From: Truepera sp. | Lineage (GTDB): Bacteria > Deinococcota > Deinococci > Deinococcales > Trueperaceae | Direction of reading: 5' to 3' | Assembly (NCBI GenBank): GCA_965218435.1 | Contig: CBDCKW010000005.1 | Location: forward strand, 192,001-256,000 | Length of the DNA: 64,000 nucleotides | Part shown: in pieces, positions 1,272 to 53,521 of the stretch | How positions within the stretch are numbered: position 1 is the first letter of the stretch | Layout: each line of letters opens with the position of its first letter | Made by a program: the position numbers and the translations under genes | The notes under the pieces: generated by a model | Database searches by the model: none | Told to the model about the DNA's origin: nothing | Seen by the model: only the letters and a program-made list of their open reading frames with translations

Positions 1272-2391
1272 TAAGTACAACCAAGCTAACTCTACGCATT
1301 AATCGCATCCGAGACGGAGAGACCCGAAAAGACAGCCTCTCTGAGGCTTTTGAGAGAAGTGTATAAGCGTCTAGGCAGCAGAAACCCTTTAAGCACTCGC
1401 CAGCAAGCTTCAATGGGATTTAGCTGCGGGGAATAAGGGGGAAGATAACGAAGGAATAAACCGTGAGCTTGCCACTGAGGTTCTTTGGCTTTGATGTTAG
1501 CGGCTTTATGGAATCTCGCGTTATTACGTTGTGTTCTCGCTCCGCTCGGACCGAGTACGACGACAGTTAAACCTTTGGGGTCAGCCGCTGCCATAAGGCT
1601 GTCGAGAAACGCCTCACACTTTTTGGCGTCACAGCTACCCGCTAAATCACGGTAAACAAGCTTGTTAGCTGCAAAGTCTAATGCGCCTATGAGATTAAGC
1701 CTTCCGGCTGAACCCTGCCGTGAAGGAATCTCGAACTGAATCCCTGAACCTTTGAGCGTCCAAGTCTTGATGAGCTTAAGGACTAAACTAAACCCTACCT
1801 GGTCAAGGTAATAGAGCTTCAAGCGTCCTGCTAAAGCCCCCTTTTCAGGGTGTCCAACACTGCTTTATGATGCTTAAGCTCGTCCTCGCTGGGACGCTTG
1901 GCCGGGACAAACCGTCCCCTCTTCCAGCTGTAGCCCATTTCTCGCAACCTCAAACGAATACCTTCAGAACCAACTTTGACGCCGTAATCCTCGTTAATTA
2001 CCTCTGAAAGCTGCCGACACGCCCAGGTTCTTTCTTCTTTTAGCTTCGCTTCCATGAACGCTTTGATGGCTTCAGTAATAAGGGGGTTTTGACCTTGGTT
2101 CTCGACATGATCGGCTAAGCCTGCATAGCCCGCTGTCTCCCAGCGGGCAAACGTGGTTCTGACCGTATCGTAGCTTTTGCCTTTGCCTACATACTGGCTT
2201 ATCCCTTGCATGCTTGCGCCCTCATGTGAAAGTCTCAGCATCTGTACCCGCAGACGCACTTTCCAGTGAATATGTGTGGGTTCTGCTCCAAGGCTCTCAA
2301 CTTCTCGTTCTCTGCTTGGCTCAAAGTGATGTAGCGGTTCGCTCGATTTGCCATCCCTTATTATTGTGGAAAGTTGGCTTGGACGTACTTA
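1272..2391 (-). mobile_element. IS630-family insertion sequence, defective
   Basis: Imperfect TIRs TAAGTACaaCCAAGCtAACT / TAAGTACgtCCAAGCcAACT with TA at both ends; encloses a two-ORF HTH + DDE_3 transposase. Confidence 0.85.
1292..2354 (-). pseudogene. IS630 transposase (OrfA frameshifted near 2270; AAAAGGGGG slippery junction; 27-nt insert in the catalytic Asp codon)
   Basis: Motifs YLDQVGF, LPPYSPQLNPIE and MGYSWKR. VVVL[GPSGARTQRN]NARFH replaces VVVLDNARFH. Confidence 0.85.
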
Positions 2392-2414
2392 GTGTAACAG
2401 GCTAGTTTCGAAAA

Positions 2415-3362
2415 GTGGACACGGTATTCGTAGGTTTGACATGCAAATAGACCGCTACTGCCCGTTATAACCAAGAATTCGAGGCTCATTTTCGTGTACC
2501 TGCGCCGAGTGCGGCGGGAATGGTGTTTATTCCCTCTGGCGTTACCATGTTAGAACAACGCTATGTTTTTTGCGTGAAAAAGGGTTCTGGGTGTCGTCGA
2601 AAGCACCTAACGATTATCGGGGTCTCGAAAGTATCGAATCGTGGTTGGCGTCGTGCAACCTGTAAGCGTAGTGACACGCACGCTACCGAGCCACACGGTT
2701 ACCCCGCCGTAATCCTTTTCTAAGGCCGTACAGTGGTACAGGTATTCGCCAACTGTGGGCATATTATTCGTTGCCCCATGTCAATTACTTATTGTGTTGT
2801 GGCGTAACTACTCAGGCGGGAGACCTCGACTTCGAGATCTTTCTATAAAGATTGGGGGAAAATCGGGGTAAAAAAGATTTCGGGCAGCAACAAAATGTGA
2901 CGTTCGCCGGAAGCACACCCCGGTCAATGACTTGATGTTGATACATTGCAATTGACCTTCCAAACAGTTTATATTTGTCACCCCCAAGAATATGGCTCAC
3001 CGACGCAAGAAACGCCTGCATAGGGGGACGAATAATTCGAGTAAAGGGGGCATGATGTTCGTAAAGGCAAGACACGATATTCGCTTGAAAGGGGCACGGT
3101 GTTCGCTTAGGGGGACAGCGTGTTCGTCTTTATGGGGCAAAGTATTCGTCTGCGGTGGACAGATTGTTCGTAACCGCTTTAGCGCCGTCTCATACGCTGG
3201 TTTCAAGGCTGCAAAGGTGCGCTACGCTTCTTCTTGACGTAGTTGGGGCAAGATGTTCGCTTTGGGTGTAAGTACAGACGTTGCGGCGTAAGTGTGGACA
3301 AAATATTCGTATCATCCGGTGTAAAACACCGAGCTCGGTCCTAAGGTGGACAAGATATTCGT
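2415..3362 (+). repeat. Iteron set of the plasmid replication origin; 17-mer consensus approx. GKGGRCANNNTRTTCGY
   Basis: Copies start at 2415, 2733, 2755, 3024, 3046, 3068, 3090, 3111, 3133, 3155, 3244, 3294 and 3346. The core block 3024-3171 has 21-22-bp periodicity and lies directly upstream of rep. Confidence 0.88.
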
Positions 3363-3389
3363 TTTGTCCGGCATAACGGCGCGGCAAAT

Positions 3390-3431
3390 GTGGAATTGGT
3401 CTTGACAATAATTCCACTCTAGCTTTAGGCT
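3390..3431 (+). promoter_or_regulatory. rep promoter overlapped by an inverted-repeat operator
   Basis: GTGGAATT(3390-3397)...AATTCCAC(3410-3417) encloses TTGACA (3402-3407). Candidate -10 TAGGCT lies about 18 nt downstream; RBS GAGGAG precedes the GTG start. Confidence 0.6.
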
Positions 3432-3463
3432 AATACAACGCACTAGGCTAAAGAGGAGCACTC

Positions 3464-4876
3464 GTGTCTCAAAGCGGCGAAAAGCTCGATCTCGAATTCA
3501 GTAAAGCGCGTGTCCGGCAAGCAAACATGCTGGCAAAAAGCGGTCAGGCCTTAGAGCTCAATGAGAAAAGGTTGATCTTTCTTACGATGGCGCGGATTAA
3601 AAGCGGCGATAAAGAACTCCTTACTCATAAGATCGGTATGAAAGAGCTTACCGAGCACTTTGGCGAGAATCCCTACGCTCGTGCTGAACGTGCTGCGCGG
3701 GGTCTACTGCGCCGTCAGGTCTTTATACCAACCGACGATGGGGGCTTTAAGGAGTTTCAGTGGACGACGCTCGCTCAGTACGTGCCAGCGGAATCGAGTG
3801 AGACGGGCGAATCTTACGTCAAGATCCGGCTCAACGAAGAACTTGCCCCACTTTTGCTCGAACTACGTGAACGCTACAACACGATCCCGCTTCTCGACGT
3901 GCTGCCGATGGAATCGTTTAACGGTCAGCGGCTCTACGAGATCTTGTGGCACGATTCGCACGGTGGCGAAAAGAAAGTCTTAACTTATAACATCACCGAT
4001 CTCAAATTCAGTATGGGGATGCGGGTGCTCGAAACCAAAGGGTCGAAAAAAGTCTGGACCGAAAAATACAAGGCTTGGCGCGACTTTCGTAAGATGCTTG
4101 AACGTGCCTGTCAAGAGTTTGAATCGCATGGCCGCCTACGCTTTTCGTTCGATCCACTGAGACAAGGCCGCGCGATCCAGCAAGTTCGCTTCCACCTTTC
4201 GCTAGTTAGAGAAGAAACGCTGCCCATCCCAGAACCTCGGCAGCTCACCTTGTCGGCTGAGGAGCAGAGCGTAGCTGACGAACTTCGCAGCACAGGCTAT
4301 ACGCTAGATGCCGACGCCTTTGTCTTGACCCACAGCCACGAAGTCGTCGCCCGGGCAATCAAGCTCGGCCGAGCCGCTGCCAGCCGCGGGAACGGCGTCA
4401 ATAAGCCGATCAGCAATCTGCCCGGTTTTATCAAGCATCTGGTAGATTCCGGGTCGGCGCTACGCTCGCTTAAACAAGACGCCTTAGGTAAACGAAAACG
4501 AGAGAAGCGAGCCGACGCGGACGAATTGGTCGAAATCATCCGGCACGCTTTCGACGCTTACCGTAACGAAGCGGCCGAGGGCATTCTCCAGACGCTCGAC
4601 GAAGATACGCTTTGTGCGCTTCCCGAGATGTTACGCGTCGAGCTCGAGACCCGCCACCGTCCCTACGTTCTCGACGTGCTAGAGAAAGCGGGCTGGCAGG
4701 GAGCCCAATATGAAATCGCCCGCAACAGCTATCTACTCGAGCTTTATAGCGATGAGCTGCCAGAAGCGGTTCACGACGTTGCGAGGTTTGTCGAAGAGAC
4801 ACAGATGCTTGCCAGTCAACCCAAAGAGGTTGCAGAACACGTCTTCAGCACCTTGAAAAACGACTTCGGTAGCTAA
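3464..4876 (+). CDS. Plasmid replication initiator, Rep_3/RepB family, with long C-terminal extension
   Basis: VRQANMLAKS...LELNEKRLI, IRLNEELAPLLLELRERY, RLYEIL, WRDFRK, GRAIQQVRF motifs; adjacent iterons and parA. Confidence 0.88.
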   Translation: MSQSGEKLDLEFSKARVRQANMLAKSGQALELNEKRLIFLTMARIKSGDKELLTHKIGMKELTEHFGENPYARAERAARGLLRRQVFIPTDDGGFKEFQWTTLAQYVPAESSETGESYVKIRLNEELAPLLLELRERYNTIPLLDVLPMESFNGQRLYEILWHDSHGGEKKVLTYNITDLKFSMGMRVLETKGSKKVWTEKYKAWRDFRKMLERACQEFESHGRLRFSFDPLRQGRAIQQVRFHLSLVREETLPIPEPRQLTLSAEEQSVADELRSTGYTLDADAFVLTHSHEVVARAIKLGRAAASRGNGVNKPISNLPGFIKHLVDSGSALRSLKQDALGKRKREKRADADELVEIIRHAFDAYRNEAAEGILQTLDEDTLCALPEMLRVELETRHRPYVLDVLEKAGWQGAQYEIARNSYLLELYSDELPEAVHDVARFVEETQMLASQPKEVAEHVFSTLKNDFGS

Positions 4877-5004
4877 TGAGTGTTCCCAGTCACGGGTGCG
4901 TTGAGCTTCGACGTCTTACCGAATAGGGGAGACCAAGGACCTGGTAGATACGGTCGTCAAATGGTCCTTGAGCGAGCGTTCGTCAGACGAGCCTAAGGTT
5001 ATCG

Positions 5005-6449
5005 TGGAGTTGGTCAGGTCAAACGGACAAAAAAGTCTACCTCAAGCAGCGAGGTTGACCAAGTGCTGAGATTCAAAATCATTGGGGCAGACATAGCCGA
5101 GGCTGCTATGAAGTCGCCAGCTGTTGTAGTACATCAAGATGAAGTCCTTGATGGCCGAGGCAGCCTGATCTCGGGTTTGAAATGACGTTTGATATACCAA
5201 ACCCTAATTGCTAGTCAGCCTCAGTCAAGCTTGGCAAGCACAATAGCGAGCAAGGAAGCGTGAACCTTAATGAAGAAACCTTCGTTGGTACGAACCTTAA
5301 GCGTTTGTGTGCCCATACTTTCGAGTTGGCTGTTGAGGGTTTCAATGCTTTTACGGTAACGCTGGAGTGAGAAGAATTCAGATAGTGTGTTTTGTTCCAT
5401 ATTTTTACGGCGAGCGGGTATGAGCTTTACCGCTGTTTCTGTCAACAGCGTGGTTTCGTCATCTCTACTGTTATAGGCTTTGTCAGCGTAGACACTTGCG
5501 CCTTGAGGTAAGCCGTAGCAGAGTTCATGCACAGGGGTAAGGTCGTATAGCAGGCCCAAGAGGGCCGGGGCACTGCCCCCTATGCTGATGACTGGCCTCT
5601 AGTAAAGCAAAACTCACCGGGACACCCGCAGGTGTACAAACTAGATGTAAGCGCCAACCGAAGAATTTTTCTTTTTTAGCAGCGCAGTAGCTGCAGAACG
5701 CCTTACCTTTTACCTTCTTACAGCGTCTTGCACGAACCCGTCGGCACACGGGTACAGGCAAACTGTCAATGATAAACACCTCCCCTCGGTTAAAGAGTTT
5801 GCTAAGCAACCCAAGTAGCCCTTCAAGCCAAGCTGCTAAGGCGTGAAGTCGGCGGTTATACCGTGACACACTTAAGCGGGGAACGTGACCTGAGCCAATC
5901 ATGACTGACAAGGCACGTTCCTGATGATTCTGAAAGTATTTCGCTGCTACCACTGCAATGGTTAAAACTTCCGGGTCGCTAACCGTGGCTAGCGGGTGAC
6001 TTTCATGCCCCAGACTTTGCAAGGTGTCGGCAATGATGCTGTAAGCGGCTATGATAAAGCTGTCGTCCATGTCGGCTGCTCCTTTACTGATGTCCTCAAA
6101 CACCAGCTTAGAAGTCAACCGCTTGGGCGGCAACTAGCAATTAGGGTACCAACTCTTTTTTGAGGGTAGCGGAGAAGCTTTCGGTGTAGGCGTTGTCGAG
6201 GCATGCGCCAGTCCCGGTAAAACTGGCTCTCATGCCTGCTGTAGCTAGCGCTCGGGCATAGGCGTAAGAGGTATATTGACTGCCCCTTATCACTGTAGTG
6301 GATGAGACCCTTAGCCGGGTGCCGCCCTGGTTTGGCCATCGCGAGCGCCTGAAGCACCAATTCGGTTTTCATGTGTGCTGCCAGGGCGTAGCCGATGATG
6401 CGTTTGGAACAAGCGTCCATTACGGCGGCTAGGTAAAGCCAACCCTCTT
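5005..6449 (-). mobile_element. IS3-family remnant (integrase C-terminal half), interrupted by IS982 and truncated by an IS5-family element
   Basis: EGWLYLAAVMDACSKRIIGY...HYSDKG (6148-6449) and YYNSWRLHSSLGYVCP (about 5050-5200); terminal TG at 5005. Confidence 0.8.
5201..6147 (-). mobile_element. IS982-family element; transposase 5221-6070 frameshifted by a 40-nt hairpin insert
   Basis: Perfect TIR ACCCTAATTGCTAGT; flanking direct repeat ACCAA; motifs IIDSLPVPVC, FFGWRLHLV, YADKAY, RKSIETLNSQL. Confidence 0.88.
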
Positions 6450-7518
6450 TAAATCATCTGCGAAATAACTTTCTAAGCAACCCACGTTGTTGAAGCTTGA
6501 CTTTTGCTCAGTCCCGTTTCTTACCAAGCCAAGCGGTTGAGCTTTCTAAAGTTGTGGAGTCCGGCGATGGTTAAGAAGGTGTCGTCGTAAACCTCGTGGT
6601 CGCCTCTATAAACACCCTCTAAGAGCTTGAACCGTTGCAGATGGGCAAAGGCATGTTCAACTGGGATACGAGAAGTGCTGATCACTTGGTTGAGGTATTT
6701 TTGAATAAGGTCTAAAGGTTTGTTGCGTCTTGCTTTACGGGGTTGATGAAAAACGCGCCGGGGATGTTCTCGGTCAATACTGTCATAGCCTTTGTCTAGT
6801 CCTACACAGAGATTGCCGGGTAAATCATGTAAAACTCGCGAGGCCCTAAGTAGATGTAGGTCACTGACTTTGCCGGGAACAAAGCGCGACAGCTGCAGGA
6901 TAAGACCTGTGGTGCTGGTGGTGGCTTGAGTTTTCAGACTATGACATTTCTTTTTGCCCGAATAGTTGTCTCGGCGTTTTTGCTTATCTTTAGGCTTTTG
7001 AACTTCTTGTTCAGTCGCGTCGATGAGAACGTCTTGTATCTCAGGGTGCTTCCTCAAAAGTTCTTCCAAGCTGCCGATACGTTTGCCGGTCTTTCCGACT
7101 TTACCAAACAGCTGGGCTTCTCGTACCGGCACAGGCAATACCGCTGCCAAACAAGGCTGCAAGCGCCTGATCAGCCGACTGACATTGCTATCATCCAAAT
7201 CAACCAGGTAGCCCAGCAGCAGTTGCGTGATATATAGGCGGTAGTAAACCAGCAAAACCAGCACCTGATCCTCTACGGCTAACTTGGCCTAGCGTCCCCC
7301 GCCTGGAGCCCGTTGGCGCTGTTTCATTGGCCGGGTGTAAGCGTCGGCTCCCTGCTCGCTTTGGGCTGCCGCTACTGCTATAACCAGCGTGTCAAACTGC
7401 GCTACGCTTAAACCGGTGAAGTTGTGGAAGTGTCCGGGTCGTTTTCGCAGTCGTTCAGCTCTTAGCATAGGCTTTACTTTACCTGTCTTCCTTCAAAGCT
7501 TATTTCGCAGATGATCTA
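6450..7518 (-). mobile_element. IS5-family (ISL2-like, HTH_Tnp_4 + DDE_Tnp_4) element; transposase 6521-7468 with in-frame TAG near 7290
   Basis: TIR ATCATCTGCGAAATAA at both ends, flanked by TA; motifs FHNFTGLS, LIDATEQ, YSGKKKCHSLKTQ, LDKGY, RIPVEHAF. Confidence 0.85.
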
Positions 7519-7753
7519 TTAAATGTCTGGTTTAATAAAGCTGCTACTCACTGCGTCGCTAGCAAGCGTTTCAACCGAAGGAGGCTGCAAAGTCAAGCTG
7601 GGTTAGGGTCGGGAATGTCGGCTTGCCCCCGTTGCCCAAGCAGCACAACATATGAATAGCATTCCTGTCCTGTTAAAAATAGTCTTGACTGCATCCTGTT
7701 ATTATGAAAACAGAAGTTCTGAATCAACGCGAGCACATACTCATTTTTAGGAG

Positions 7754-8870
7754 ATGGTAGCAATAACCCAAGCAGCGCAAGACAACACCGTTTTGTTCCA
7801 GCTCACCGGGGTCGGAGTGGTCGAGACCAATATGGCAAGCGGGCGGCTGGTGCGGGCGAACCGGACGTTTTGCGAGCTGGTCGGCTACAGCGAGACCGAG
7901 TTAAAAAAGATGAGCTACCTCGAGCTGACGCACCCCGACGACTGAGCGCGAGACGCTGAGCGTTTTGCGGCGCTGGGTCGGGCGAAAACCGGAGCGGAGA
8001 GTCGCTGACCCGCATATGCCGTAAGGACGGCGCAACCGTGTGGCTCGAGCTGCACGTCACGGTGCTGGGCGAGGAGCCGGGGGTGCGCAATCTAACGGTG
8101 GCCAGCGACGTGACCAAGCGCAAGCGGGCAGAAGACGTAATCAGGGACTGAACGAGACCCTCGAAGCGCGGGTCAAAGCCCGTACTGACGAGCTGGCGCG
8201 GAGCAACATCCGCTTTTCCCAGGCGTTCCACGCCAACCCCATCCCCGCTTGCATGACGACGTTGGGCGAGGAGACCTTCGTCGAGGTCAACGACGCTTTC
8301 TGCGCCCTGACCGGCTATACAAAAGGCAAGGCGGTAGGCAGAACTAGCCGCGAGCTGAGGATGTGGTCGTCACCCGAGGACCGGAAGAAGCTCGGCGCGG
8401 TGCAACAGGGCGGCTTAGGCTTTCGCAATCTCGAGCTAGGGCTGAGGGTCAAGGACGGCGGCGACCGCACCGTGCTGATGTCCGCCGAGGTCATCCGGCT
8501 CGGTGGCCATAAAGGGTTTCTTAGAATGTTCTTCGACGTGACCGAGCAGCGGCGCACCCAGGAGCAGACACACCAAGCGATCCAGGAGGTGCTGAGCGAC
8601 ACGAACTGGTTCAGCCAGCGGGTGATGGAGCGGCTGGCCCACATTAGAACAGGAAGCGCCACGGCGTTCGAGGCCACCGAGCTGTCTAAACGCGAGCGGG
8701 CGGTGCTGGAGCTGCTCGCCGGAGGTTTGAACAACGCCGCCATCGCTGCCGAGCTGGGTCTCGCCGCACAAACAGTCCGTAACTACGTCGCGACGATCTA
8801 TGACAAGCTTGAGGTGCACTCGCGTACCGAGGCGGTCGTCTGGGCTCGGGAGCGGGGCATCGTCAGCTAA
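7754..8870 (+). pseudogene. PAS-PAS-LuxR HTH transcriptional regulator, disrupted
   Basis: PAS motif ANRTFCELVGYSETEL...THPDD followed by TGA at 7943-7945 and frameshifts. Second PAS (EVNDAFCALTGY) and LuxR HTH (LSKRERAVLELLAGGLNNAAIAAELGLAAQTVRNYV). Confidence 0.85.
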
Positions 8871-9085: not shown

Positions 9086-9325
9086 GATCCTTACCCTTTG
9101 GTCATTCAGCTTAGGCGTATGAATCAGCGGTAAATGCAAGCACACCGCGAAATCGGCAACGGTAGGTCAAAGGACAGTTCTACGGAGCAACCCGTTAAGG
9201 CAAAGGCTTAGTGAGGTTTCCGTCGTCTGACAACTTTAGTTCTTATTGGCTCCCCTTAAGGACAAAGCAAAACCCCAGCTTAAGGCTGGGATCAACGGTT
9301 TTATTTAAGTGAACTCTTTACGCCA

Positions 9326-28454: not shown

Positions 28455-30503
28455 TTAAGCTGAACCGTTTTGTTCTTTTTGCAAAAGGTCTAACAGGTTG
28501 ATGGCGATAACATCCGGCGGAATCGCCATCCCCCCGTAGTTTCCGGTCACGCTGTTGTGGGTGTCAGCGAAACAGGTATCCAGCAAACCCTGCTCGAACA
28601 GCTCGAGCGTGTCCGGCAAATTGTGAGGCAACCAGGTTTTCTCGTTAGCGCCAAGCATCCAGCGCAACGCCGCCGTGGTGACGCCCTGTTGGTAGCGACG
28701 CCAGTCGATGTCTGGGTCGACGGTTTTCCAGTCGATGCCGTAGTGACTCGAGAGCGCAAAAGTCTCTAAGACCTCCCACTGCACGTGGTCGCGTACCCAG
28801 TTGGCGAAGTACCAATCGCTCGCGCACAAGCAGGGTTTGGTGTTGTAAAGCGCGGGGGCCGCGTCAGGCTCCCACAGATGGGTGAACGGCAACAGCGCAC
28901 GCAGCCAGTGGCGTGCCTTTTGTAAATAACGGTCGTCCCTGAAGTGCCGATACCCGAGATAATAGGCGACGGCGGCGTGTCCGGCGGCGAGCAGGTTGGG
29001 GCTGTGGAGCGGCGTTTCCCAGTAGTCGCCGCCTTCGGGACGTTGCATCTCCAAACAGTAGTCGAGCGCTTTGCGGGCGGCGTCGGCAAACTCGGATTCA
29101 TCTGTAGTTTCTGTGAGATAAAGCAGCTCGAGCACCGGCAATATCGTAATATCCAGGGCCGTGTCCTGAGCGTGGCCCATCGGTTCTAAAAAGGTCGTCG
29201 CTACGATGAAGTCGTCTTTGCGGTAGTGCCGCCCTGCCGGATCGAACGGGAACGCGCCGTTCTCCTGCTGCGCCTCGAGCAAACCTCGTCCGTGCTCGAG
29301 CAAGGCGTCTCGAGACAGGTTCTTTTCACGCAAGGGCAGATATTTTTCATGTTCAGGCTGCGCTCTGACCCACTCGAGCTTTTCCGCCAAGCGCGTCGCC
29401 GTTTCTGTGCTTGCATAGCGTGCCACATAAGCCGGGGCGAAACGCGGGAGTTTTGGCTGAACCGAGTTTTCTGTCTGCGCCGTGCCGAAGCCTTTGCCTT
29501 CGTGCCACAGGTGTGTGGTGTAGGCGTCGGCGATGCGGTGAAGCGCATCTTCAAAAGACCAGCGCGGTTCCGGTGGTGGAGGCAAACCGCGCCGTTTAAC
29601 GTAGTCCGCTACGACGTCCAAGCTAGTACCTTGGGTCAAGAAAATTTCTGCGTCGAAGTGGAGCCACTGTTCATGGTGGAGCTCGAGCGGCGGCTCGGCG
29701 TAAACCTGGTTTTCTAAAGCTTCCACCTCCGCGTCCGGCAGCATCAGCCCCAGCAGGTGCTGATTGCAGCGGTCGATAAAATTGGGCGAGGCGAATACGG
29801 GTTGCTGCTTTTGTCTGCGGTAATTGAACCAACCGGTCGCGTCCTGCACAGGGTTCCAGGCCATCCCGATGCCCACGCCCTCGTGACTCACCGCCATCAG
29901 CGGGATGGCGACCTTGTTCGGGTGCGGCATAAACCGTTTGGCCCAGGGGTCTTTGAACCAGTCGGTGCCGCTCGACCATTCCTCGCCGACGAGCCACTCG
30001 ACGCCGGGAAAGATGGCGTCGGTTTTGTCATGTCCAAAACTACCTGCGCCCACCTTTAACCAGGGGCCGCGCACGTAGCGGGCGTACTGGTTAGCTTTGG
30101 ATATATAGCGGCAAGAAATCATGAGCCGGGGCGCGTCTGGTACTAAGGTCAGCCTGACTTCTCCCACCAGGCAGTGAACCTCGAGCGGATAGTGGAGCCA
30201 GCTTTCGAAAGAGGTTCCCTTCAGCTTGTCCTTGACAATAAGGGATTTGACGCTAAAGGTTAGGGTGTCGCCTTCGCTGTTTTGGGTGTGTTTGCATGTT
30301 TCGGCCTCGAGCCGCATCGGAATCTCCTGGTCGCGCAGCAGCAGCTCGCCTAAATGTTCCAAAACACCCAAGCACTTGCCCTGCGGGCTCAACAGTTCGG
30401 CCCAGCCCCAACCGGTCAGCCGCTTGTGAACCTCGACGCGGAGGTACTCGTTTTGCAAGGTGACGGTTTCGCCGCCATAACTGGCGTGTTGGTAGACTGG
30501 CAT
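28455..30503 (-). CDS. Hypothetical 682-aa Trp-rich protein, possible carbohydrate-active enzyme
   Basis: Long ORF with GAGG RBS, first gene of the minus-strand catabolic operon. The C-terminal half has helical-repeat character. Confidence 0.75.
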   Translation of the reverse strand: MPVYQHASYGGETVTLQNEYLRVEVHKRLTGWGWAELLSPQGKCLGVLEHLGELLLRDQEIPMRLEAETCKHTQNSEGDTLTFSVKSLIVKDKLKGTSFESWLHYPLEVHCLVGEVRLTLVPDAPRLMISCRYISKANQYARYVRGPWLKVGAGSFGHDKTDAIFPGVEWLVGEEWSSGTDWFKDPWAKRFMPHPNKVAIPLMAVSHEGVGIGMAWNPVQDATGWFNYRRQKQQPVFASPNFIDRCNQHLLGLMLPDAEVEALENQVYAEPPLELHHEQWLHFDAEIFLTQGTSLDVVADYVKRRGLPPPPEPRWSFEDALHRIADAYTTHLWHEGKGFGTAQTENSVQPKLPRFAPAYVARYASTETATRLAEKLEWVRAQPEHEKYLPLREKNLSRDALLEHGRGLLEAQQENGAFPFDPAGRHYRKDDFIVATTFLEPMGHAQDTALDITILPVLELLYLTETTDESEFADAARKALDYCLEMQRPEGGDYWETPLHSPNLLAAGHAAVAYYLGYRHFRDDRYLQKARHWLRALLPFTHLWEPDAAPALYNTKPCLCASDWYFANWVRDHVQWEVLETFALSSHYGIDWKTVDPDIDWRRYQQGVTTAALRWMLGANEKTWLPHNLPDTLELFEQGLLDTCFADTHNSVTGNYGGMAIPPDVIAINLLDLLQKEQNGSA

Positions 30504-35214: not shown

Positions 35215-35216
35215 AC

Positions 35217-37542: not shown

Positions 37543-38698
37543 CAGGGCTTACGCATGTAGAAGCAGTGACTTAGCATGAGGGATGAACGAGTATGAACTA
37601 CCAAGGCTGTTAGCGCATTTTACGGTTATACCTGATCCAAGAGCACATAGCGTCTGCCACAAGCTTGAAGACATCTTGGTGATTGCGATCTGTGCTGTTA
37701 TCGGCGGGGCGAACTCGTTTAGTGAGATTGAACAGTACGGCGAAGCAAAAGAGAGCTGGCTGAAAAAGACTTTAGAATTATCGAACGGTATACCGAGCCA
37801 CGATACGTTTAGACGCGTATTTATGCTGTTAGAAGCTGAAGCGTGGCAAGGGGTATTTTTCGATTGGACACGGGCGCTGGTTTTAGAACCGACCACTAGC
37901 CCAACCGAGGTACTCGCGGTAGACGGCAAGTTCTCACGGGCGAGCGGCTTGCACTTCCCGAAGGACCGAGCGAAGCGTACGGTGAGTGTGTGGGCGAGTG
38001 AGCATCACGTTGTTTTAGCACAACAGCAAGTAGCCGACAAAACCAATGAGATAACGGTCATCCCTGAACTGCTGGAGGTGCTTGATATTGCTGGAACAAC
38101 CGTGACCATCGACGCGGCTGGTACGCAAAAACATATTGCCTGGGTCATTAGAGAACATCACACAGATTATGCCCTTGCCCTTAAAGCCAATCACAAACAC
38201 TTATTCGAGGATGTCAAATGGTTGTTTGCTCAACACGAAAGCACGCCGCATTGGACGACTTGCACAAAAGGTCATGGACGCACTGAAACCAGAGACACCT
38301 GGTTACTTACCGACCTCAGCTTTCTGGAAAACGTCTCCGCTTGGCGCGACCTTGCAGGTGTCGCACGTGTGCGGGGAACACGCGAAGTAAACGGAGAAGT
38401 GAGCGTATATGACCGTTATTTTCTTACCAGCTTGACCAACGCGGAAACGCTCGCCTACGCCGTGCGTTCGCACTGGGGCATCGAAAACGGTCTACACTGG
38501 GTTCTGGACGTTGCTTTTAGCGAAGATCAGAGCAGGGCTAGAACCGACCACGCTCAAGCCAACCCCGTCACGTTGCGGCATTTGGCTTTGAATCAACTTA
38601 AACGAGAAAAGTCGCTTAAAGCTAGTGTCAAAGCCAAGCGCATGAGAGCAGGTTGGGATGACCACTACCTCCTTAAAGTTCTACATGCGTAAGCCCTG
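37543..38698 (+). mobile_element. ISAs1-family element; transposase 37583-38692
   Basis: Perfect TIR CAGGGCTTACGCATGTAGAA; 10-bp TSD CGCTACTACC; PSHDTF, VDGK, HWGIENGLHWVLDV. Confidence 0.92.
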
Positions 38699-39111: not shown

Positions 39112-40377
39112 TGATCTTCACCCGCTTTTATGGAGTCGTAGTTAAGCAGCTTGAGAGAAGTGTACCCGTTCAAAATTGTCAGGAGATAGAAACCCCAGAG
39201 AGGAGTGCCTACGCTTGGCGTTGTAGAAACCCTCTAGGTAGCTGAAGATGCTGGTCTTAGCCTGCTGGCGGGTCTGGTAATTTGCGCCCTCGACCTCTTC
39301 GGTTTTCAGAGTAGCGAAGAACGATTCGACGACGGCGTTGTCATAACAATTCCCTTTGCCCGACATACTTTGTGTGATGCGGTTGGCTGCGAGCTCGGCC
39401 CTAAAAGCACGACTGGCATATTGGCTGCCCCTATCTGAATGATGCGTCAGTGTCGCCGTATCGGGCCGCTGCCGCGTCGCCATCGTCAACGCCGAGAGGG
39501 TGAGGTCATCGGTGAGTCCGTCGGAGAAGGCCCAGCCAATGACTTTGCGGCTGAAGAGGTCGAGCGTCACCGCCAGATACAACCAGCCCTCGGCGGTGGG
39601 TAGGTAGGTGATGTCGCTGGCCCAGAGGGTGTTGGGGGTTGCCACGTCGAAGTTCTGCTCAACGAGATTTGCTGCTTTAGGGCGCGAGTGCTGGGAGGTC
39701 GTGGTGGTCTTGAACTTTCGTTTCGTCTTGCCCCTAATGCCTGCTGAGCGCATCAGACGGGCGACGCGCTTGCGCCCGACCTTGTGTCCGGCAGCCCGTA
39801 AGTCCTTGTGGATGCGCGGCGAGCCGTAGGTGCAACGGCTCCCGCAGTGGAACATCACGATCTTCTCGCTCAACGTTTCGTCCTCCCTGACTCGCTCCTG
39901 ACTCGCTGGCTTTTTCCTCGCCGTGACCAGGCGTAGAAGCCGCTGACCGACACGGCCAACACCCCGGCCATCAAGCTGACGGCCCAAAAGTTACGGTGTT
40001 CCTTGATGAAGGTGTACCTCACCGACTTTCCCCGGCAAAGAACTTGACCGCTTTTTTTAAGATGTCACGCTCCTGTATCACCCGCTCGAGTTCTTTTTTC
40101 AAGCGCACGTTCTCTTGCTGCTCGGCGGTTAAAGCGACCTTGCCGTTCCCGGGAAAGGCCAGCTCGCCGCCCTCACGCGCCTGTTTCCGCCACTTGTAAA
40201 GGCTGTAGTCGGACACGCCCAGTTCCTGGGCGATCTGAGCCACGCTTACCCCCGCTTGTTCACTCAACCTGACCGCTTCGCGCTTGAATTCCGCCGTGTA
40301 GACCCTACGTTCTTTCATATCGCCTCCATTGTGCATCAGAGGCTTAACTCGGTCTCCGTTTTATCGGGTGAACATCA
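39112..40377 (-). mobile_element. IS3-family element (OrfA 40019-40318; OrfB to 39142, frameshifted by an 11-bp tandem duplication)
   Basis: TG...CA ends with TIR TGATcTTCACCCG; 3-bp TSD ATC; WASDITY, HSDRGSQY, DNAVVESFF; CCTGACTCGCT duplicated near 39886-39907. Confidence 0.9.
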
Positions 40378-42994: not shown

Positions 42995-42995
42995 C

Positions 42996-44255
42996 TAGTA
43001 CTCTAACCAGGTAGAACAGAGGGATAAAGCCTTTTAAGTTTAGTGCGAGCATCATCTGTAGTGAAACGCCAGTCCACCATGTTTTTGTGGTCATTACGCT
43101 GCCGAGTCCAGTGCCGAGTGTTGTTTTTGAGGGTATCCACAGAGGTTACGTGTTCAGCGAGACACTGTTTAGCTAAGACAGAGAGCTCTATTTCAGCCGT
43201 CTTGGGTAAAACGGCACCTGTCTTGGCCTTAAAGCAGCACCTACCGGGCTTGGCCGCTTCCGGGCCTGCCCGCATATTTAACCAACTACCATGCTCAGGA
43301 GTGTAGTGCCACTCGATGCGCTCGGTAATAGCACGGGCTTCCTCGGGCTCAAAGGCTTCGTAGAGTGCAGCGGTACTGTGAGTATTGAGGTTGTCGGTAA
43401 CGAGCACCACCTTCTCAGCTTGGGCGTAGTCTTCCATGATCAGGCGCTTGAGTTCGTGAGCGAAGTCAATAGCGGTACGTCGCTCAGTGACTCGCACCGT
43501 TCGTTCGCCCGCAAGGGGCTCAACGGCGAGAAACAAATTGGCGGTGCCATGGCGAGTATATTCGTAGTCTTCTCTGGCGAACTGCCCAGGTTGCAACGCC
43601 AGGCTGCCGTGAGGCGTACTGTGCAGCTGCTTGCTCAGTTCGTCGAGACATATAACCGGACGTTTGGCGTTGTAGGGCCGGGCATAGACCTCCAGCACAT
43701 CTTCCATCTTGGCGACAAAGTGGCTGCTCGGCTTAGCTAGACACCAGCTCTTGACTCGCCAAGGCTTAAGTTCGTTTTTTTGAGCCGCTTGCACACGGCT
43801 ACATTGCTGATGCTCTCGACGTAGCCCAACTCAACCATCTGCTCAGCTAAAAGCCTCAAGGTCCAGCGCTGTCTTCCGTCAGGGGGTTCGCTGCACGCCA
43901 GCATCACCAGCTTCGCCTCAATCTCTCCGGTGATTTTGGGAGCGGCACCAGGGCGAGTCTTCTCTCGTAGAGCTGTCTCTAAACCCTCTACGACGTATCG
44001 GCGACAGATGCTGCCTACGTGCTCACGCTGCACAGCAGCACTTCAGCGATCTCTTGGTAGTTTCGCTTTGGCTGCCGTTCTCGATCTGCCAGAAGCAGGA
44101 TGCGGGCACGCGTGAGGGTGCGGGCCGAACTGCTGCCGGAACGGACCAAGCTGCTTAACTGCTCGTATTCTGCCTCGCTTAGGTGGACGTGCAGATGTTG
44201 TCCCATGCCTCAGCTTTAACCTGGAAAGGGTGAAAATCAAGTTAGCTGGGTACTA
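42996..44255 (-). mobile_element. IS630-family element, defective (transposase 43003-44206)
   Basis: CTAGTAC ends; A7 slippery site; CLDE, VTDNLNTH, HYTPEHGSWLNM...AEIEL with a 75-nt insert; extra frameshift near 44015. Confidence 0.85.
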
Positions 44256-44855: not shown

Positions 44856-44869
44856 CAGACGGAACCGGT

Positions 44870-48141: not shown

Positions 48142-48234
48142 AGTGGTCCTCCTGGCGCGGGTGAGCTCGGCTGCGCTCGCCCGGCGTCACTGTCATGCTA
48201 CTTCGCACCTCCCTGGGGCGTCCAATAGCTAACG

Positions 48235-48271
48235 GGAGCGCAGCCATAGGCGTAGCCTATGGCTGCGCTCC
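48235..48271. promoter_or_regulatory. Perfect 17-bp stem palindrome containing a LysR box
   Basis: GGAGCGCAGCCATAGGC-GTA-GCCTATGGCTGCGCTCC with ATAG-N7-CTAT core, between lysR and the monooxygenase. Confidence 0.65.
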
Positions 48272-48285
48272 GCGTCCGGGCCCGT

Positions 48286-49194
48286 TCAACGGGGCGGAAA
48301 GGGGTGAGGCGCGACGTCCCGCGCCGCTGCAAGCAGTGCCCGCGCGATGGGGAGTGGACTCTCCCGGCGCCAGGTCAGGCCCAGGGTCCAGCGCGGCGGC
48401 TCGCCCGCGAGGGGCCGGTGGATCACCCCGGCCGGGCGGTGCATCGCTAGGACCGCCGAGCGCAGCAGGCCTACGCCGCGTCCCGCCGCAATCATGCCGA
48501 GAATCGGTTGAAGCTGTATTCCCTGGTAGACCACCCGGGGCGTGAAGCCCGCCCGGCGGCAATGGTCGATCAGGGACGCACTCCCCCGGCCGCCCAGGTC
48601 GGCCCGGTGCAGGAGAAAGGCTTCCGTAGCGAGTGCAGCGAGCGACACCTCCGGCAGCGCGGCGAGGGGGTGTCGCTCGGGGAGCACCGCCTGAAAGGTA
48701 TCAGTAAGCAGCGGGTAGAAACCCAGGGTGTCTTCCACGAAGGTCTCGCTCAGGAAGCCCATGTCCACCTCACCGTTCAGGAGCGCGTGCACCTGCGCCG
48801 CCCCCAGCAATTCGCGGGAGTCGGGCACCATGCCGGGGTGAGCTTCGTTTAGCTTGCGGAACAACTGCGGCATGGGCGGGACGTTGCCGTATTCGGTGAA
48901 CTCCCAGGCCAGACGCAGCGTGCCATCGTCTAACCCCCCCGCCTGCCGGGCGCGGCGCACGCTCTGTTCTACGTAACTCAGCACGTGGCGAGCGTCCTCG
49001 AGGAGGGACTGTCCCACTTCGGTAAGCTCCGCGCCCCGGGCGGTGCGGTGGAAGAGCGTGACTCCGAGGTCCTCCTCGAGCTGGCGGATGCGCTGGGTGA
49101 GGGAAGGTTGGGTGAGGTTCGAGCGCTGGGCGGCCCGGGTGAAGTTCCGCTCCTCGGCCACGGCCACGAACAGCTTGAGCTGCTTGAGATCCAT
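48286..49194 (-). CDS. LysR family transcriptional regulator
   Basis: MDLKQLKLFVAVAEERNFTRAA...TQPSLT..IRQLEEDLG. Confidence 0.95.
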   Translation of the reverse strand: MDLKQLKLFVAVAEERNFTRAAQRSNLTQPSLTQRIRQLEEDLGVTLFHRTARGAELTEVGQSLLEDARHVLSYVEQSVRRARQAGGLDDGTLRLAWEFTEYGNVPPMPQLFRKLNEAHPGMVPDSRELLGAAQVHALLNGEVDMGFLSETFVEDTLGFYPLLTDTFQAVLPERHPLAALPEVSLAALATEAFLLHRADLGGRGSASLIDHCRRAGFTPRVVYQGIQLQPILGMIAAGRGVGLLRSAVLAMHRPAGVIHRPLAGEPPRWTLGLTWRRESPLPIARALLAAARDVAPHPFPPR

Positions 49195-49294
49195 GGAGTC
49201 AGACTATCCGGCATACATAACCAGAAGTGTATCGGTCCCGAGAAAACGCCGCAACACTAAAACAGCCGAGGCTGAACCCCAGGTTCTACGGCGC

Positions 49295-49391
49295 ACCAAA
49301 AGTTCTCGATACGGCAAACAGCGATATCACTGCAAGGACTGTAGCCGAGCGAGCCTGGACAAGACAACCCCGACTATGGGTACAGCGAAGC
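49295..49391 (+). pseudogene. IS1-like InsA zinc-finger fragment truncated by IS6
   Basis: GKQRYHCKDC motif directly before the IS6 TIR. Confidence 0.55.
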
Positions 49392-50245
49392 GGTTCCGTC
49401 AAGTTACTTCGACTGAGGTAGGCTGCTCGGGTGTTCGAAGCATCCGAAAGTCCTAAAGGCTATCGTTTTCCAAAACTGATTATCTCCTATGCGATCTACC
49501 TCTACCACCGCTTTTTGCTTTCGTTGCGTAGCCCTCCTTCAGGAGACCGAGACGTTCAGGAACTGCTGTTCGAGCGTGGCATCGACGTGAGTCACAAAAC
49601 GGTTCATGCTTGGTGCCATCCTTTTGGTCCAGCTATAGCCCAAGCACTTAGACGGCAGAAGCCTAGACGGAGTCGAAACTGGCAGCTAGACGAGGTGCGA
49701 GTCGTGATAAGTGGTGCGGTCCATTGGCTCTGGCGAGCGATTAACGAACATGGTGAGGTTTTGGATGTTCTGCTGCAAGAGAAGCGCGATACCGGCGCAG
49801 CCCAGCGCTTCTTCCGGAGACTGATCAACGATCAGGAGTTACCTGAACGCATTGTCACCGATGGGCTCAGGAGCTATGGTGCGGCACTCAGAGAGCTGCC
49901 TGAACTAGGCGCGAGTGAGCACGTTACCGTCTCGGCTGCCGAGCGGCGGAACAATCTCATCGAACAGAGTCATCGCCCTACCCGTGAGCAGAAGCGGCAA
50001 CAACGAGGTTTTAGAGCTACAACAATCACCAAGCGCTTTTTGTTTGCGCATAGCAAACTCTCAAATTTGTTTCGTCAATGTCGAGGCTCGACCCCTGCAC
50101 CTCTAAGGCGTCGCTATCTAACGCACGGCTTTGCCCAATGGCGTGAGCTGGGCATGGCGATTCCCTGAATAATCCCGAAAAGCTGATAGTCACGCGCTTC
50201 TGCTGTACCGGCAAGCTGCTCTATCCAAAATAACTTGACGGAGCC
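49392..50245 (+). mobile_element. IS6-family element; transposase 49431-50168 with a 21-nt in-frame insert
   Basis: TIR GGyTCCGTCAAGTTA; GYRFP, WQLDEV, LWRAI, VTDGLRSY, NNLIEQSHRP. Confidence 0.9.
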
Positions 50246-50521
50246 TGTTGACCGCTTCTGAAACGGTGTAGCCCTGTTCTTCGAGCAGCTTCGCTGCACC
50301 GAGCTTGAATTTAAGGGGGTACTGCCTGAGAACTCTTTTGTCTTCTGATATGGTCTTCTCGTTTGCAGGCTTCTAGACCCTGCTTGATTTGTCCGGGGAG
50401 ACGCACCAAGACCCCCTGTTCAGATACCGGCAAAAACCCTAAAAAGACGGTGCTCGGACAGGCCAAAGGTGGAACCTTAGTTATTCTGACTTCGCTGACA
50501 GTATCGTCGCCTTTGCCCTTA

Positions 50522-50869
50522 TTAAACGAGTTGTGCTTCGGGCTCGGAGAGCCACGTCTCAGCCCAAACAGAAAGGGTGTTAAGAGGAGCCTCGAGCGCC
50601 TGTCCCTTGGGTGTAAGGCGGTATTCGACCCGCACTGGCGTCTCAGGGATGACCTGTCGCAAGACCAAGCCAGCAGCCTCAAGTTCCTTGAGCCTTTCTG
50701 AGAGCATCTTATCGCTGATCTCGGGTATAGCTCGCCGCAGATCGTGAAACCGCACCGGCCCGTTTAGTAGGAGCTGCACGATTGCTCCGCTCCACCGTTT
50801 GCCGATAAGCTCGACAGCGGCATGAAAGCGCGGACATAGTTGAATGCAGGATTCGGCGGAGGGTTCCAT
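50522..50869 (-). CDS. HxlR/DUF24 family regulator
   Basis: CP...ELIGKRW, ISDKMLSERLKELE, RVEYRLT. Confidence 0.92.
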   Translation of the reverse strand: MEPSAESCIQLCPRFHAAVELIGKRWSGAIVQLLLNGPVRFHDLRRAIPEISDKMLSERLKELEAAGLVLRQVIPETPVRVEYRLTPKGQALEAPLNTLSVWAETWLSEPEAQLV

Positions 50870-51000
50870 AAGCAAAGTTTAGCATAAGCATAGCTGCTTA
50901 TTTTTTCTCAGCTACTTGACATTCTGTAATAACCGTTCTATAGTAGCTTACAAAAGGTTAGTCAAGCTAGCCTTAATCTAATGACGGCAAGAGGTTATCT

Positions 51001-51507
51001 ATGGCAGACATTGGGCTTCTCATTCTTCGACTGGTAGTCGGGCTTCTCCTAGCTGGACATGGCGCGCAGAAACTGTTCGGGATGTTTGGTGGTCCCGGTC
51101 TTAAAGGTACGAGCGGCTGGCTCGGGTCAATGGGCCTGCGTCCTGCGGGCATTTGGGCGATTCTTGCTGGTCTTAGCGAATTTGGTGGTGGCGTGTTACT
51201 GGCACTTGGGCTCCTTACCCCGTTTGGCGCGGTTGGGGTAGTCGCGGCGATGCTGATGGCGGTGCTTTTGGCTCACCGTCAGGCGCTATGGGTGACTGAC
51301 GGCGGGATGGAATACAACCTCGTGCTGATCGCCACAGCTGTCGCGCTCGCCTTCACCGGCCCAGGTCAGTTTTCGCTCGACGCGGCGCTTGGTCTGAGCG
51401 TACCCCTTTCCCTGACAGCAGGGCTTGCGCTACTCGCGCTGCTTACAGTCGTGACCGCTCTGGGCACCCGTAAAGCGCCCGCCCCTGCCCAGGCCCCAGG
51501 CGACTAA
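51001..51507 (+). CDS. DoxX family membrane protein
   Basis: HGAQKLFG, GMEYNL, GPGQFSLD. Confidence 0.92.
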   Translation: MADIGLLILRLVVGLLLAGHGAQKLFGMFGGPGLKGTSGWLGSMGLRPAGIWAILAGLSEFGGGVLLALGLLTPFGAVGVVAAMLMAVLLAHRQALWVTDGGMEYNLVLIATAVALAFTGPGQFSLDAALGLSVPLSLTAGLALLALLTVVTALGTRKAPAPAQAPGD

Positions 51508-51602
51508 AAGCTTTCTACTGAGCTGCGAGGAGGCACACGACTTGGTGTGCTTCCCTAGGTGCTTTTTCTTTCTCAGGCTCGACTATCAAAAAAAGGATTC
51601 TT

Positions 51603-52709
51603 GTGTCAGCTTCGCCCTCCACTAAAAGCACGCTCACCCCCACACGCCCCTTCGAGATCGGTCTCTACTCGTTTGCCGAGCTGACCCCCGACCCCGCGAC
51701 GGGTCAAGTTTTCAGTCCGGGGGAGCGCCTACGCGACCTTTTGGAAGAGATTGAACTGGCGGATCAGGTCGGGCTCGACGTCTACGGCTTGGGCGAGCAT
51801 CACCGTGCCGACTTTGTGGCGTCAGCGCCCGCCGTTGTCTTGGCTGCCGCAGCTACTCGTACGAAACGCATCCGCCTGAGTAGCGCCGTGACAGTCCTCA
51901 GCTCGGACGATCCGGTGCGTGTGTTTCAAGCTTTTGCCACGCTCGATCTACTTTCACAGGGGCGTGCCGAGATTATGGCGGGGCGCGGCTCGTTCGTCGA
52001 GTCGTATCCACTTTTTGGTTACGACTTAAGCGACTACGACGCTCTCTTTTCGGAAAAGTTGGAGCTTTTGCTCGCTATCCGGCAAGATGAGTTTGTTACC
52101 TGGTCGGGCAAACATCGTCCCAGCCTCGACCATCTAGGGATCTATCCGCGCCCCGTGCAGGACGAACTGCCGATCTGGATCGCGGTCGGCGGCACGCCCG
52201 AGTCGGTCGTGCGGGCTGGACATTTCGGGTTGCCGCTGGCTCTCGCCATCATTGGCGGGATGCCCGAACGTTTCGTACCGTTTGCCGACCTCTACCGCGA
52301 TTCTGCTGCGCGCTCAGGCTACACAGACCTCCCCGTCAGCATCAACTCGCACGCGTACCTAGCTGCTACCAGGCAACAGGCTGTTTCTGAGTACTACCCT
52401 TCCTACGCGCTCCTGATGAACCGTATTGGGCGTGAGCGCGGCTGGTCGGGAATGTCGCTTCCCCAGTTTGAAGCGCTGTGTTCGCTGCGCGGTGCCCTCG
52501 CGGTTGGAACCCCCGAAGCGGTTACCGAAAAGATCCTTTTCCAGCACGAGCTGTTTGGGCACCAGCGGTTTATGGCGCAGCTGAGCGTCGGGACGCTCCC
52601 ACATAGTCAGGTCATGCACGCCATCGAACTCTTAGGGACGAAGGTCGCGCCGGTGGTGCGAGCAGAAGTTGCACGCCGCACCAAGAGGCGTTCGGCAGTG
52701 GGTATTTGA
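51603..52709 (+). CDS. LLM class flavin-dependent oxidoreductase (luciferase-like)
   Basis: [30 protein letters not shown]. Confidence 0.92.
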
Positions 52710-52758
52710 CTTTACCTATAAGGGAACTACCTCTTTCTGCTCAAGCAAGCCCGGTACT

Positions 52759-53521
52759 GGCGTTGTTACATTAACTTTGGCTAAGATTGTTGAATACAGC
52801 TTGCTTACGCAACCGGCCGTACCTTTTATGCGGTTGCCACTAACTCAGTCACTTCGCGCCAAGTTGCGAACCGCTCAGACAGAGTTTGGCGGTAGTCGGC
52901 TGCTTCAAGCAAATGGCAAGATGGGCGAAAGTGAGTGTTGAGGGGCTCGAAGATGGACAGAAAGCGCCCTACATGGCCGGGAGACTTGAAGCACTGATAG
53001 CAGCCCCACGATAGGGCAAGGCCCACGTACTTGCCCCACTAGGGGCGGGCTAGTGCCCGTACAAGTGGCCGTACCCTAGGGCGGGTCTAGTGACCCCTAT
53101 GCTGAAGCGCCCGTTCTCGTCGCCTCGTTCTCTGATGCGAGTTCTCAGCACGGTTGTTTAGATACCGGCTCTGACGATGTTCAGTGTGGTGCAGCAACGC
53201 AGGGCAGCCCTATAGCTTCGTAGCTTGTCGGTCACGACCACCCTTGGCTTGGCGTTGTCCCGCAGCAGTTTGCGTAAAGAACGCTTGGCTGCCCTTTTGT
53301 CACGTTTGCTTGTCACCAGGATGTCGAGTGTATTGCCCATTTGATCGACTGCCCTCCACAGGTAGCGCCGTTCGCCACCGATATCCCGAAGCGGTAGTAA
53401 AGCCAGAGGCAGTGATTGATGATCTCGGCGGGGAAGCGGTGACGTTTGTAGAGGTCGGTGCTCATAAGTTGCCAACCTTAACATGAGCCTTGAGTTGCCC
53501 CGGAGTTAATGTGACAATTCC
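52759..53521 (-). mobile_element. IS6-family remnant with internal deletion and a hairpin-array insert
   Basis: TIRs GGcgTTGTtACATTAACT / GGaaTTGTcACATTAACT; YLWRAVDQ, VTDKLRSY, FKSPGH. Confidence 0.82.

Follow-up and report, generated by a model that had tools for sequence, protein, structure and literature searches.

The closest described counterparts of the elements reported here are the very small dispersed repeats SDR1-8 of Nostocaceae, which Elhai et al. are said to have described in 2008 as units of 21-27 nt, some of them self-nesting. Since that first description, the way in which the smallest mobile elements of bacteria move has been an open question, and the route suggested for the SDRs is an RNA copy that is reverse-transcribed. 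Mosaic repeats of Deinococcus radiodurans, the SNRs, were reportedly described by Makarova et al. in 1999. Here, we analysed a stretch of 64,000 nucleotides (the window) from the genome of a Truepera sp. (GenBank assembly GCA_965218435.1, contig CBDCKW010000005.1, positions 192,001 to 256,000), in which six transposase genes of insertion sequences (IS) are interrupted by very small inserts. The inserts are mobile, as seen from filled and empty alleles, unrelated sites, nests and carriage by IS elements. We put at about 0.5 the probability of the following reading: several gene-less families of 21-42 bases enter exact sites with no regular target duplication and are moved, as folded single-stranded DNA, by a nick-and-rejoin enzyme acting in trans.

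A survey of HIP1-rich cyanobacteria is stated to have found SDR-like repeats in Nostocaceae and none outside that family (PMC5861425). The repetitive extragenic palindromes (REPs) tagged with CGTC, including RPE-4/6 of Rickettsia, have an 8-9-bp stem, a 4-5-nt loop and a CCA tail (Di Nocera et al. 2013, PMC3733652), and neither Deinococcus nor Thermus is mentioned in that paper. The SNRs of D. radiodurans are 60-215-bp composites, with one change in copy number (PMC1978522, PMC11276467). We found no paper on elements of the present kind in Deinococcota, in a search that covered few subscription journals and no SDR or SNR source papers.

Results

Six transposase genes carry precise inserts

In the following, G000 is the window's own genome (4.8 Mb in 9 contigs; the window is C5:192001-256000), other G-numbers are the genomes compared, L-numbers are the loci read, and X1, X2 and X5 are sequencing runs with contigs aligned to the window, X1 and X2 representing one sample that is possibly the source sample. 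An earlier note on this sequence had described foreign inserts in six transposase genes (two IS630, one IS982, one ISAs1 and two IS6; Table 1). NCBIfam matches of all six genes confirmed these host families, and all six inserts are real, with empty homologous sites in G000 for four of them. Paralogs in this genome show exact gaps at the 27-nt insert (empty at C5:495690 and C5:442375), the 40-nt insert (C9:1567050), the 75-nt insert (C5:433886 region) and the 21-nt insert (C5:494702), the last being single-copy in G000. The sole G000 paralog of the 24-nt site is filled too; an X5 contig with 6 differences in 436 letters (98.6% identical) lacks exactly these 24 nt. At the 40-nt insert, the IS982 halves on either side meet at profile positions 137 and 138 of the NCBIfam model. 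For the sixth insert, no empty allele was found among the sequences compared; its size, given as about 116 nt, had to be corrected to 108 nt (52997-53104), placed by reading frame and by the ends it shares with the 40-nt insert, and it can slide over 5 registers.

The 21-, 24- and 27-nt inserts indeed keep the frame, fit a single register with zero duplicated bases and carry GCGNAGC on the sense strand of the gene. That lengths would be multiples of three does not hold generally, since inserts of 23, 37, 38 and 40 nt exist. An assembly artefact was ruled out for the inserts starting at 37955, 43198, 49525 and 52997 by independent X1/X2 contigs, which span the first, third and fourth gap-free and cover the second; the inserts of 1525 and 5547 were found again on contigs C2, C5 and C9 of G000. 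At window position 43207, X1, X2 and X5 have C and the assembly has T; the C completes a stem pair of the element concerned (family B, below), and the T may be an error or a rare variant.

Further copies of the inserts occur elsewhere. IS630 copies of 73% identity (G000 C9; G004) hold the 27-nt insert at the same site with one mismatch, and the family (27a) also occupies unrelated sites in G004 (L196, L199). The 40-nt insert is found unchanged in an IS982 lineage of 75% identity that occupies two places, and the 24-nt insert has an identical copy in the 76%-identical paralog C9:3906294 as well as a 23-nt relative in an IS6 copy at C5:494365. A look-alike of the 21-nt insert is a 24-nt unit nested in a B element of G002 (L002). 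A new site was also seen within the window: one X5 contig (depth 3) holds a 37-nt element of family A between positions 39549 and 39550.

More single inserts with empty paralogs were observed at L132 (C9:2163163; 42 nt), L131 (C9:2066826; 24 nt, in a two-copy region without a family match), C9:1526571 (about 24 nt) and L017 (42 nt at 783 and 27 nt at 1150). In addition, window position 6288, in an IS3 remnant (6115-6447), is the empty homolog of a B site in locus L004 of G005; it has one C more than an open frame would allow, which either comes from slippage in a run of C or is a footprint of excision.

The inserts form at least three structured families

The inserts fall into at least three groups, namely family B (36-39 nt), family A (37-42 nt) and the 21-27-nt GCGNAGC units. 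Family B is a bulged hairpin of two 5-bp helices split by a 4-nt bulge, with a CGC tail at the 3' end. It starts with YGTC in 87 of 97 copies, 65 of the B loci having been found with a pattern in which GTC was fixed and the preceding Y free. The compensatory base pairs proposed as a check were found in B: 97.7% of cells are paired, with 23 double-sided changes among 31 distinct 36-nt sequences, and 0 of 500 shuffles scored as high, while slid-alignment controls gave 16-52%. This test used 31 of the 62 distinct B sequences (the short class), and only 2 of the 10 pairs vary on both sides. One base pair was not fixed by the search pattern; in 94 of 97 copies it conforms to Watson-Crick pairing, with all four pairs seen. 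These figures speak for selection on the structure of B. Its loops are GNNA in 27 of 31 sequences and of the RNA type GNRA in only 11 of 31, and a junction T makes the difference between inserts of 36 and 37 nt.

Family A consists of a short closing stem and two hairpins. Paralog gaps exposed additional members of the GCGNAGC group, of 23, 24 and 27 nt in G000 and others in G004; every N occurs in the motif, and in one family (27b) the stem around the GCGNAGC loop changes compensatorily. For both A and 27b, the compensatory evidence comes from few variants. As DNA, GCGNAGC forms a mini-hairpin with a melting temperature of 70-76 C, RNA versions being far weaker; such mini-hairpins are formed by GNA loops only and cannot be explained by standard parameters (PMC13037366). 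The description of the inserts as structured held in part when single sequences were folded: the 40-nt (z -1.7 to -2.7) and 108-nt (z -2.8 to -3.8) inserts beat their shuffles, but the 21-27-nt inserts (z -0.7 to +1.6) and the 75-nt nest (z +0.1 to +0.7) did not. Loose GCGNAGC searches gave mostly background (178 matches versus 79 in the reversed genome). Joined end to start, the 27-nt element forms at its junction a mini-hairpin with a stem of 2 bp and a GNA loop. Both of its variants (window 1525-1551; L196:1490-1516) do so, with a compensatory change across the circle-type junction; this concerns two variants only and was not seen in the other families.

Elements are nested in one another

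The 75-nt insert is a 36-nt B element holding a 39-nt B-type unit, and the same nest occupies unrelated sites at C9:3881833, L006 and L010. Its stages can be separated: an X5 joint at 43219-43260 shows the outer B without the inner unit, and un-nested B lies at the same IS630 site in G004 (L014, L094, L102) and G115 (L164). The 108-nt nest sums as 41 + 28 + 39 nt, with an outer A element (52997-53009 plus 53077-53104), a middle unit (53010-53026 plus 53066-53076) whose limits we infer, and an inner A-type element (53027-53065). An X1/X2 joint at 53009-53081 carries the same outer A at the IS6 site with a different 25-nt unit inside, and an un-nested 42-nt relative of this outer A lies in an IS of G005 (L219). 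Mini-hairpin units are nested within B at L002 and L007, which suggests one machinery common to both kinds. Tandem head-to-tail B copies occur with and without the junction T. Stacking was also observed in an IS5 gene at L128:380-800 (G000 C9:1206092-1206364), where, in a stack of four levels, an A element holds a 24-nt unit and an inverted-repeat element of about 220 bp that sits in CTAG.

Table 1 Micro-elements and a target site in the window (positions 1 to 64,000)
Feature	Position	Strand	Context
27-nt mini-hairpin element (family 27a)	1525..1551	-	In frame, in the catalytic-Asp motif of an IS630 transposase (open reading frame 1292-1822, minus)
40-nt two-hairpin junction element (family A)	5547..5586	+	Frameshifts an otherwise open IS982 transposase (5221-6133, minus)
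24-nt element with GCGAAGC mini-hairpin	37955..37978	+	In frame in an ISAs1 transposase (37583-38692)
Empty target site	39549..39550	.	Intact IS3 transposase gene (39142-39987, minus)
75-nt nest with outer 36-nt B element	43198..43272	+	In frame in an IS630 transposase (43003-43794, minus)
Inner 39-nt B-type element of the 75-nt nest	43219..43257	+	Adjoins the inner hairpin loop of the outer B
21-nt element (GCGTAGC plus 4-bp hairpin)	49525..49545	+	In frame in an IS6 transposase (49431-50168)
108-nt three-level nest	52997..53104	+	In an IS6 transposase (minus strand); parsed from sequence and fold

Family B is spread through Deinococcota

A strict B pattern searched in species-representative genomes gave 65 loci, 64 of which are titled Deinococcota (27 from one assembly); the sole exception lies at the very end of a 2-kb Coleofasciculus contig. 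Among named relatives, B is shared by records of Trueperaceae and Deinococcus. With a looser pattern, 52 of 299 genomes of the phylum had a match, against 0 matches for the reversed-pattern controls. By family, matches were found in 46 of 108 genomes of the family labelled f2, in 3 of 101 relatives within the window's own family (all of its genus), and in 2 of 12, 0 of 15 and 0 of 62 genomes of the others. The B pattern had 0 matches in viral contigs, and a pattern for the 38-nt form of A matched 2 metagenome loci only. The idea that very small, structured, self-nesting mobile inserts resembling cyanobacterial SDRs run through this whole lineage as a system is supported.

Of 11 places read in the 412-kb D. 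radiodurans record NZ_OV024759.1, 8 are intergenic repeats that contain the mini-hairpin core of the 27-nt insert, either unaltered or with a single change; no B unit was found on this record among the 6 of 10 loose matches read.

Insertion sites in G000 are biased towards IS elements

The earlier note left it open whether the inserts are seen in transposases because these are neutral or because IS DNA is targeted, and the answer is mixed. IS DNA is not required, as B outside the window's genus is mostly intergenic, with one copy in frame in ispD (L071). A Pfam transposase adjoins B in 7 of the 65 loci (L055, L061, L067, L074, L077, L094 and L102), and most named neighbours are housekeeping genes, in a scan of selected open frames (116 + 76 segments). 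Yet in G000, 16 of the 20 A/B sites found by pattern lie within 120 nt of a transposase match, versus 2.3% of random positions, a background that is too low because the query set held only the IS families identified and includes the sites' own flanks. Moreover, IS copies with flanks of only 73-76% identity hold, at exactly the same base, inserts that differ by 0-1 mismatches (P 1e-5 to 2e-3 versus shared old ancestry), and therefore neutrality alone is not the explanation.

These same-base inserts, the finding of B at shared IS630 and IS3 sites of several genomes and the 16 of 20 sites in transposase DNA would also be expected from homology-led spread, in which a filled IS copy converts an empty homologous site, by homing or by single-strand annealing of a short protected oligonucleotide, and new sites are rare. 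We regard this explanation as doubtful. The 12 + 12 bases beside the same-base inserts differ at 4-7 of 24, which is the background rate, and the differences include the base touching the 24-nt insert, so that no co-converted tract is visible; furthermore, differing B variants fill the same site, and homology would leave unexplained the nesting as well as 79 non-homologous B sites. These 79 remain of 107 B sites found, after removal of 15 tandem or nested and 13 homologous ones, some nested ones still being included.

At these 79 sites, a pyrimidine stands at -1 in 77 and C at -4 in 44, and T follows the element in 45. The target bias is weak: C at -4, a pyrimidine at -1 and a T-rich stretch after B. 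No guide-like complementarity was found between insert and target (P 0.91), nor did targets resemble the circle junction (P 0.11). A strict orientation to the host genes is true of the window inserts and fails for B and A generally, and an excess of same-strand insertions (P 0.005) was driven by self-nested sites. On the gene strand, the target of the 27-nt element (window 1552-1555 and homologs) reads CTYG and then A at 3 of 4 site types. This is a likeness to the nick sites of phiX174, pC194 and IS91-type enzymes; an IS91 transposase was not found to go with it.

Interrupted IS elements still travel. Seven identical IS5 copies in G000 carry an in-frame 27-nt unit, one IS982 lineage with the 40-nt insert occurs at two places, and a Deinococcus grandis plasmid has B at up to 10 places, of which the one opened is an IS3-type gene. 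At L147:2501-2538 (D. grandis), B lies at the 3' end of an IS3-type orfA near the orfA/orfB junction and orfA stays open; other B variants fill the same site in L067 and L151. The IS pattern would fit preferred sites combined with hitch-hiking on IS elements.

The proposed mobilising enzymes do not accompany the elements

The earlier note had suggested a mobiliser of the REP-associated tyrosine transposase (RAYT) or HUH-Y1 kind or a reverse transcriptase; these were not borne out, nor was an IS91-type transposase. Among five B-rich genomes, four of which are 92-99% complete, a reverse transcriptase is absent from 5/5; an IS91 Y2 transposase is likewise absent from all five; IS110 is present in 3/5, with none in G087 or G166. 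No Y1 gene was found in G087 (99% complete), G166 (95%) or G061.

An RNA copy reverse-transcribed in trans by a group II intron or another reverse transcriptase appears unlikely. G000 does have group II intron-type reverse transcriptases (8 matches), the 3' end of B is fixed with a variable 5' end and a one-base junction wobble, and 10 of the 11 non-standard pairs of B are A-C, corresponding to a G-T wobble on the opposite strand. Against this stand the five genomes without reverse transcriptase, loops of the DNA type and the occurrence of B in both orientations to host genes. Because GCGNAGC forms DNA mini-hairpins with every N, the B loops are mostly GNNA and only in a minority GNRA, and B-rich genomes lack reverse transcriptase, the evidence points to movement as DNA rather than RNA.

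It is similarly improbable that the elements are REP-like substrates of a Y1 HUH transposase (RAYT or IS200/IS605 TnpA) now missing from some carriers. Such a history would fit the lack of target duplication, the bulged base in the hairpins, the mosaic arrays of tandem copies and the 22 Y1 matches in G000. However, the 16 of these genes that were read resemble ordinary IS200 TnpA, which we presume them to be from their motifs, and their own hairpin ends are unlike the inserts. Y1 matches in 14 of 41 relatives show no fit to B (G001 has 11 Y1 and no B; G002 has B and no Y1), and they occur in 3 of 5 genomes in each of two further five-genome sets. The proposed proximity to a RAYT, Y1 or reverse transcriptase gene was not seen either, as no Y1 gene stands beside any B locus examined. 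The YGTC start of B is like the CGTC tag of PMC3733652, whose repeats are themselves reported to lack a dedicated transposase.

Other candidates were rejected as well. A DUF559 nuclease, considered after one overlap, is present in 138 of 299 genomes of the phylum and not in G000, G002, G004 or G005, and 0 of 31 DUF559 loci have a B or 27a core within 1.5 kb. No recurring enzyme gene was found beside 80 B loci, and no autonomous parent flanked by element ends was found, nearby B pairs being IS pairs or larger repeats.

Finally, that the inserts are taken out of the RNA or bypassed by the ribosome and conserved like micro-introns in functional transposases is highly improbable: the two IS982 lineages that are open apart from the insert, one of them at two places with it, the multiplied IS5 and IS3 copies described above and the frequent hits in conserved motifs could be read in this way, but most B outside the genus is intergenic, both orientations occur, the 98.6%-identical empty allele marks a recent gain or loss, and the movement of broken copies is explained by trans-acting transposase.

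Genomic setting of the window

The window contains a Rep3 initiator (3464-4876) on a contig (C5) of 685 kb, which is likely a secondary replicon because of this initiator; by eye, a partition-type gene lies at the window start. Contig C2 (52.6 kb) duplicates part of C5 including window 1-4876 at 99.9%, and window 52593-53508 recurs at C5:2062, so that, judged from these repeats, some of the G000 copies may be assembly duplicates. Two CRISPR-like arrays with differing repeats lie at C9:2954573-2955901 and C3:2235-4810. Two open reading frames of the window, 53490-54206 (238 aa) and 28455-30503 (682 aa), have no Pfam match at E 1e-5. De novo repeat clustering yielded mainly IS ends among the matches listed.

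Discussion

The reading that we prefer is movement of folded single-stranded DNA by strand transfer in trans. An element would fold as single-stranded DNA, be nicked at both ends by an enzyme acting in trans and be released, probably as a single-stranded circle; it would then be joined into a single-stranded target, by a phosphotyrosine-type strand transfer. The tandem head-to-tail B copies, in which the junction T may be present or missing, are in keeping with circles that open at one fixed point. One mobiliser may serve all families, with preferred sites in IS genes, and it is likely a host enzyme or belongs to a family outside the Pfam models for Y1, Y2, reverse transcriptase, IS110 and DUF559.

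Several points weigh against this reading. The junctions vary by one base (36 versus 37, 40 versus 41), and IS200/IS605 junctions are tidier; the two hairpin groups differ in the strand that carries the DNA-type loop. A target bias of 4-5 bases is not enough to account for identical inserts that share one exact position in diverged IS copies. Most columns of the B alignment were fixed by the pattern used to collect it, and related sequences do not count as independent. Genomes that retain old copies may have lost the mobiliser, so that tests by absence carry less weight, and G061 is small with no completeness given. In addition, the 21-27-nt inserts, folded as single sequences, do no better than their shuffles, in a class of hairpins that energy models miss according to PMC13037366. 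Lastly, the C(-4) rule taken up below held at 2 of 7 added sites only (null 1.9, P 0.62).

Among the named enzymes, host topoisomerase I is the only candidate with any signal, and we offer it as a tentative lead and not as a result. Topoisomerase I favours a cytosine four bases 5' of where it cuts (PMC7587558). C(-4) at both target and element end was found at 10 of the 15 first sites (null 3.9; best-of-28 P 0.024), three of the hits being B sites, that is, of the family that raised the idea, and at 12 of all 22 sites (null 5.9, P 0.005). Topoisomerase IA is present in 5/5 genomes including the B-negative G001, so that its presence is uninformative. Taken further, and as a speculation we would not bet on, the elements could be transposons without a transposase of their own kind: single-stranded DNAs of 21-42 bases pasted by a host nicking-closing enzyme such as topoisomerase I, homing to IS sites, riding IS elements between hosts and building the mosaic repeats of Deinococcus by nesting.

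This Deinococcota system provides exact filled and empty pairs, staged nests, several families per genome and culturable carriers, as B occurs in named Deinococcus species, among which D. psychrotolerans and D. wulumuqiensis are rich in it. With the usual enzyme suspects ruled against in near-complete genomes, the mobiliser question becomes directly testable. The elements also put a simple origin on offer for the mosaic Deinococcus repeats and present micro-parasites that disable and ride IS elements. An enzyme able to insert oligonucleotides of 20-40 bases into DNA with precision could be of use as a tool.

Compared with miniature inverted-repeat transposable elements, the inserts show no regular target duplication, with 1-2 registers at most sites and up to 5 at one. 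They share a short 5' target motif, mosaic arrays and, on the preferred reading, folded single-stranded DNA units with the REPIN/RAYT and IS200/IS605 systems (PMC3116915, together with the mechanism as generally understood), but consist of a single 21-42-nt unit instead of an inverted doublet, form head-to-tail arrays and have no linked Y1 gene, Y1 being absent from some B-rich genomes. The CGTC-tagged REPs resemble B in its YGTC end, the imperfect hairpin, the lack of a dedicated transposase and some in-frame intragenic copies; B differs in its two 5-bp helices, 4-nt bulge, CGC tail and self-nesting, and A and the mini-hairpin units have no tag. Like the SNRs, the mosaics between genes in named Deinococcus records are composite: they are visibly assembled from B-type units, in tandem or nested, within larger repeats. 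A link between the inserts and the SNRs may be drawn from the shared core.

The SDRs come closest. Like them, as generally described and in PMC5861425, PMC4390886 and PMC3116915, the present elements are very small and precise, show no evident duplication, comprise several families unrelated in sequence and with compensatory stems, nest in themselves and are set within larger repeats or genes. A search with the 21-nt insert and its flanks gave one weak non-cyanobacterial plasmid match (E 3). The units of 21, 23, 24 and 27 nt fit the length range reported for SDRs; B (36-39 nt) and A (37-42 nt) are longer, nests reach 108 nt, the host phylum is Deinococcota, and the evidence is for DNA and not for the RNA route suggested for SDRs. 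The comparison is one of features only, and we do not file the elements as SDR members, since host range and size differ. On our best reading of these features, the elements may nevertheless work like SDRs and would then represent a new variant of that kind in Deinococcota.

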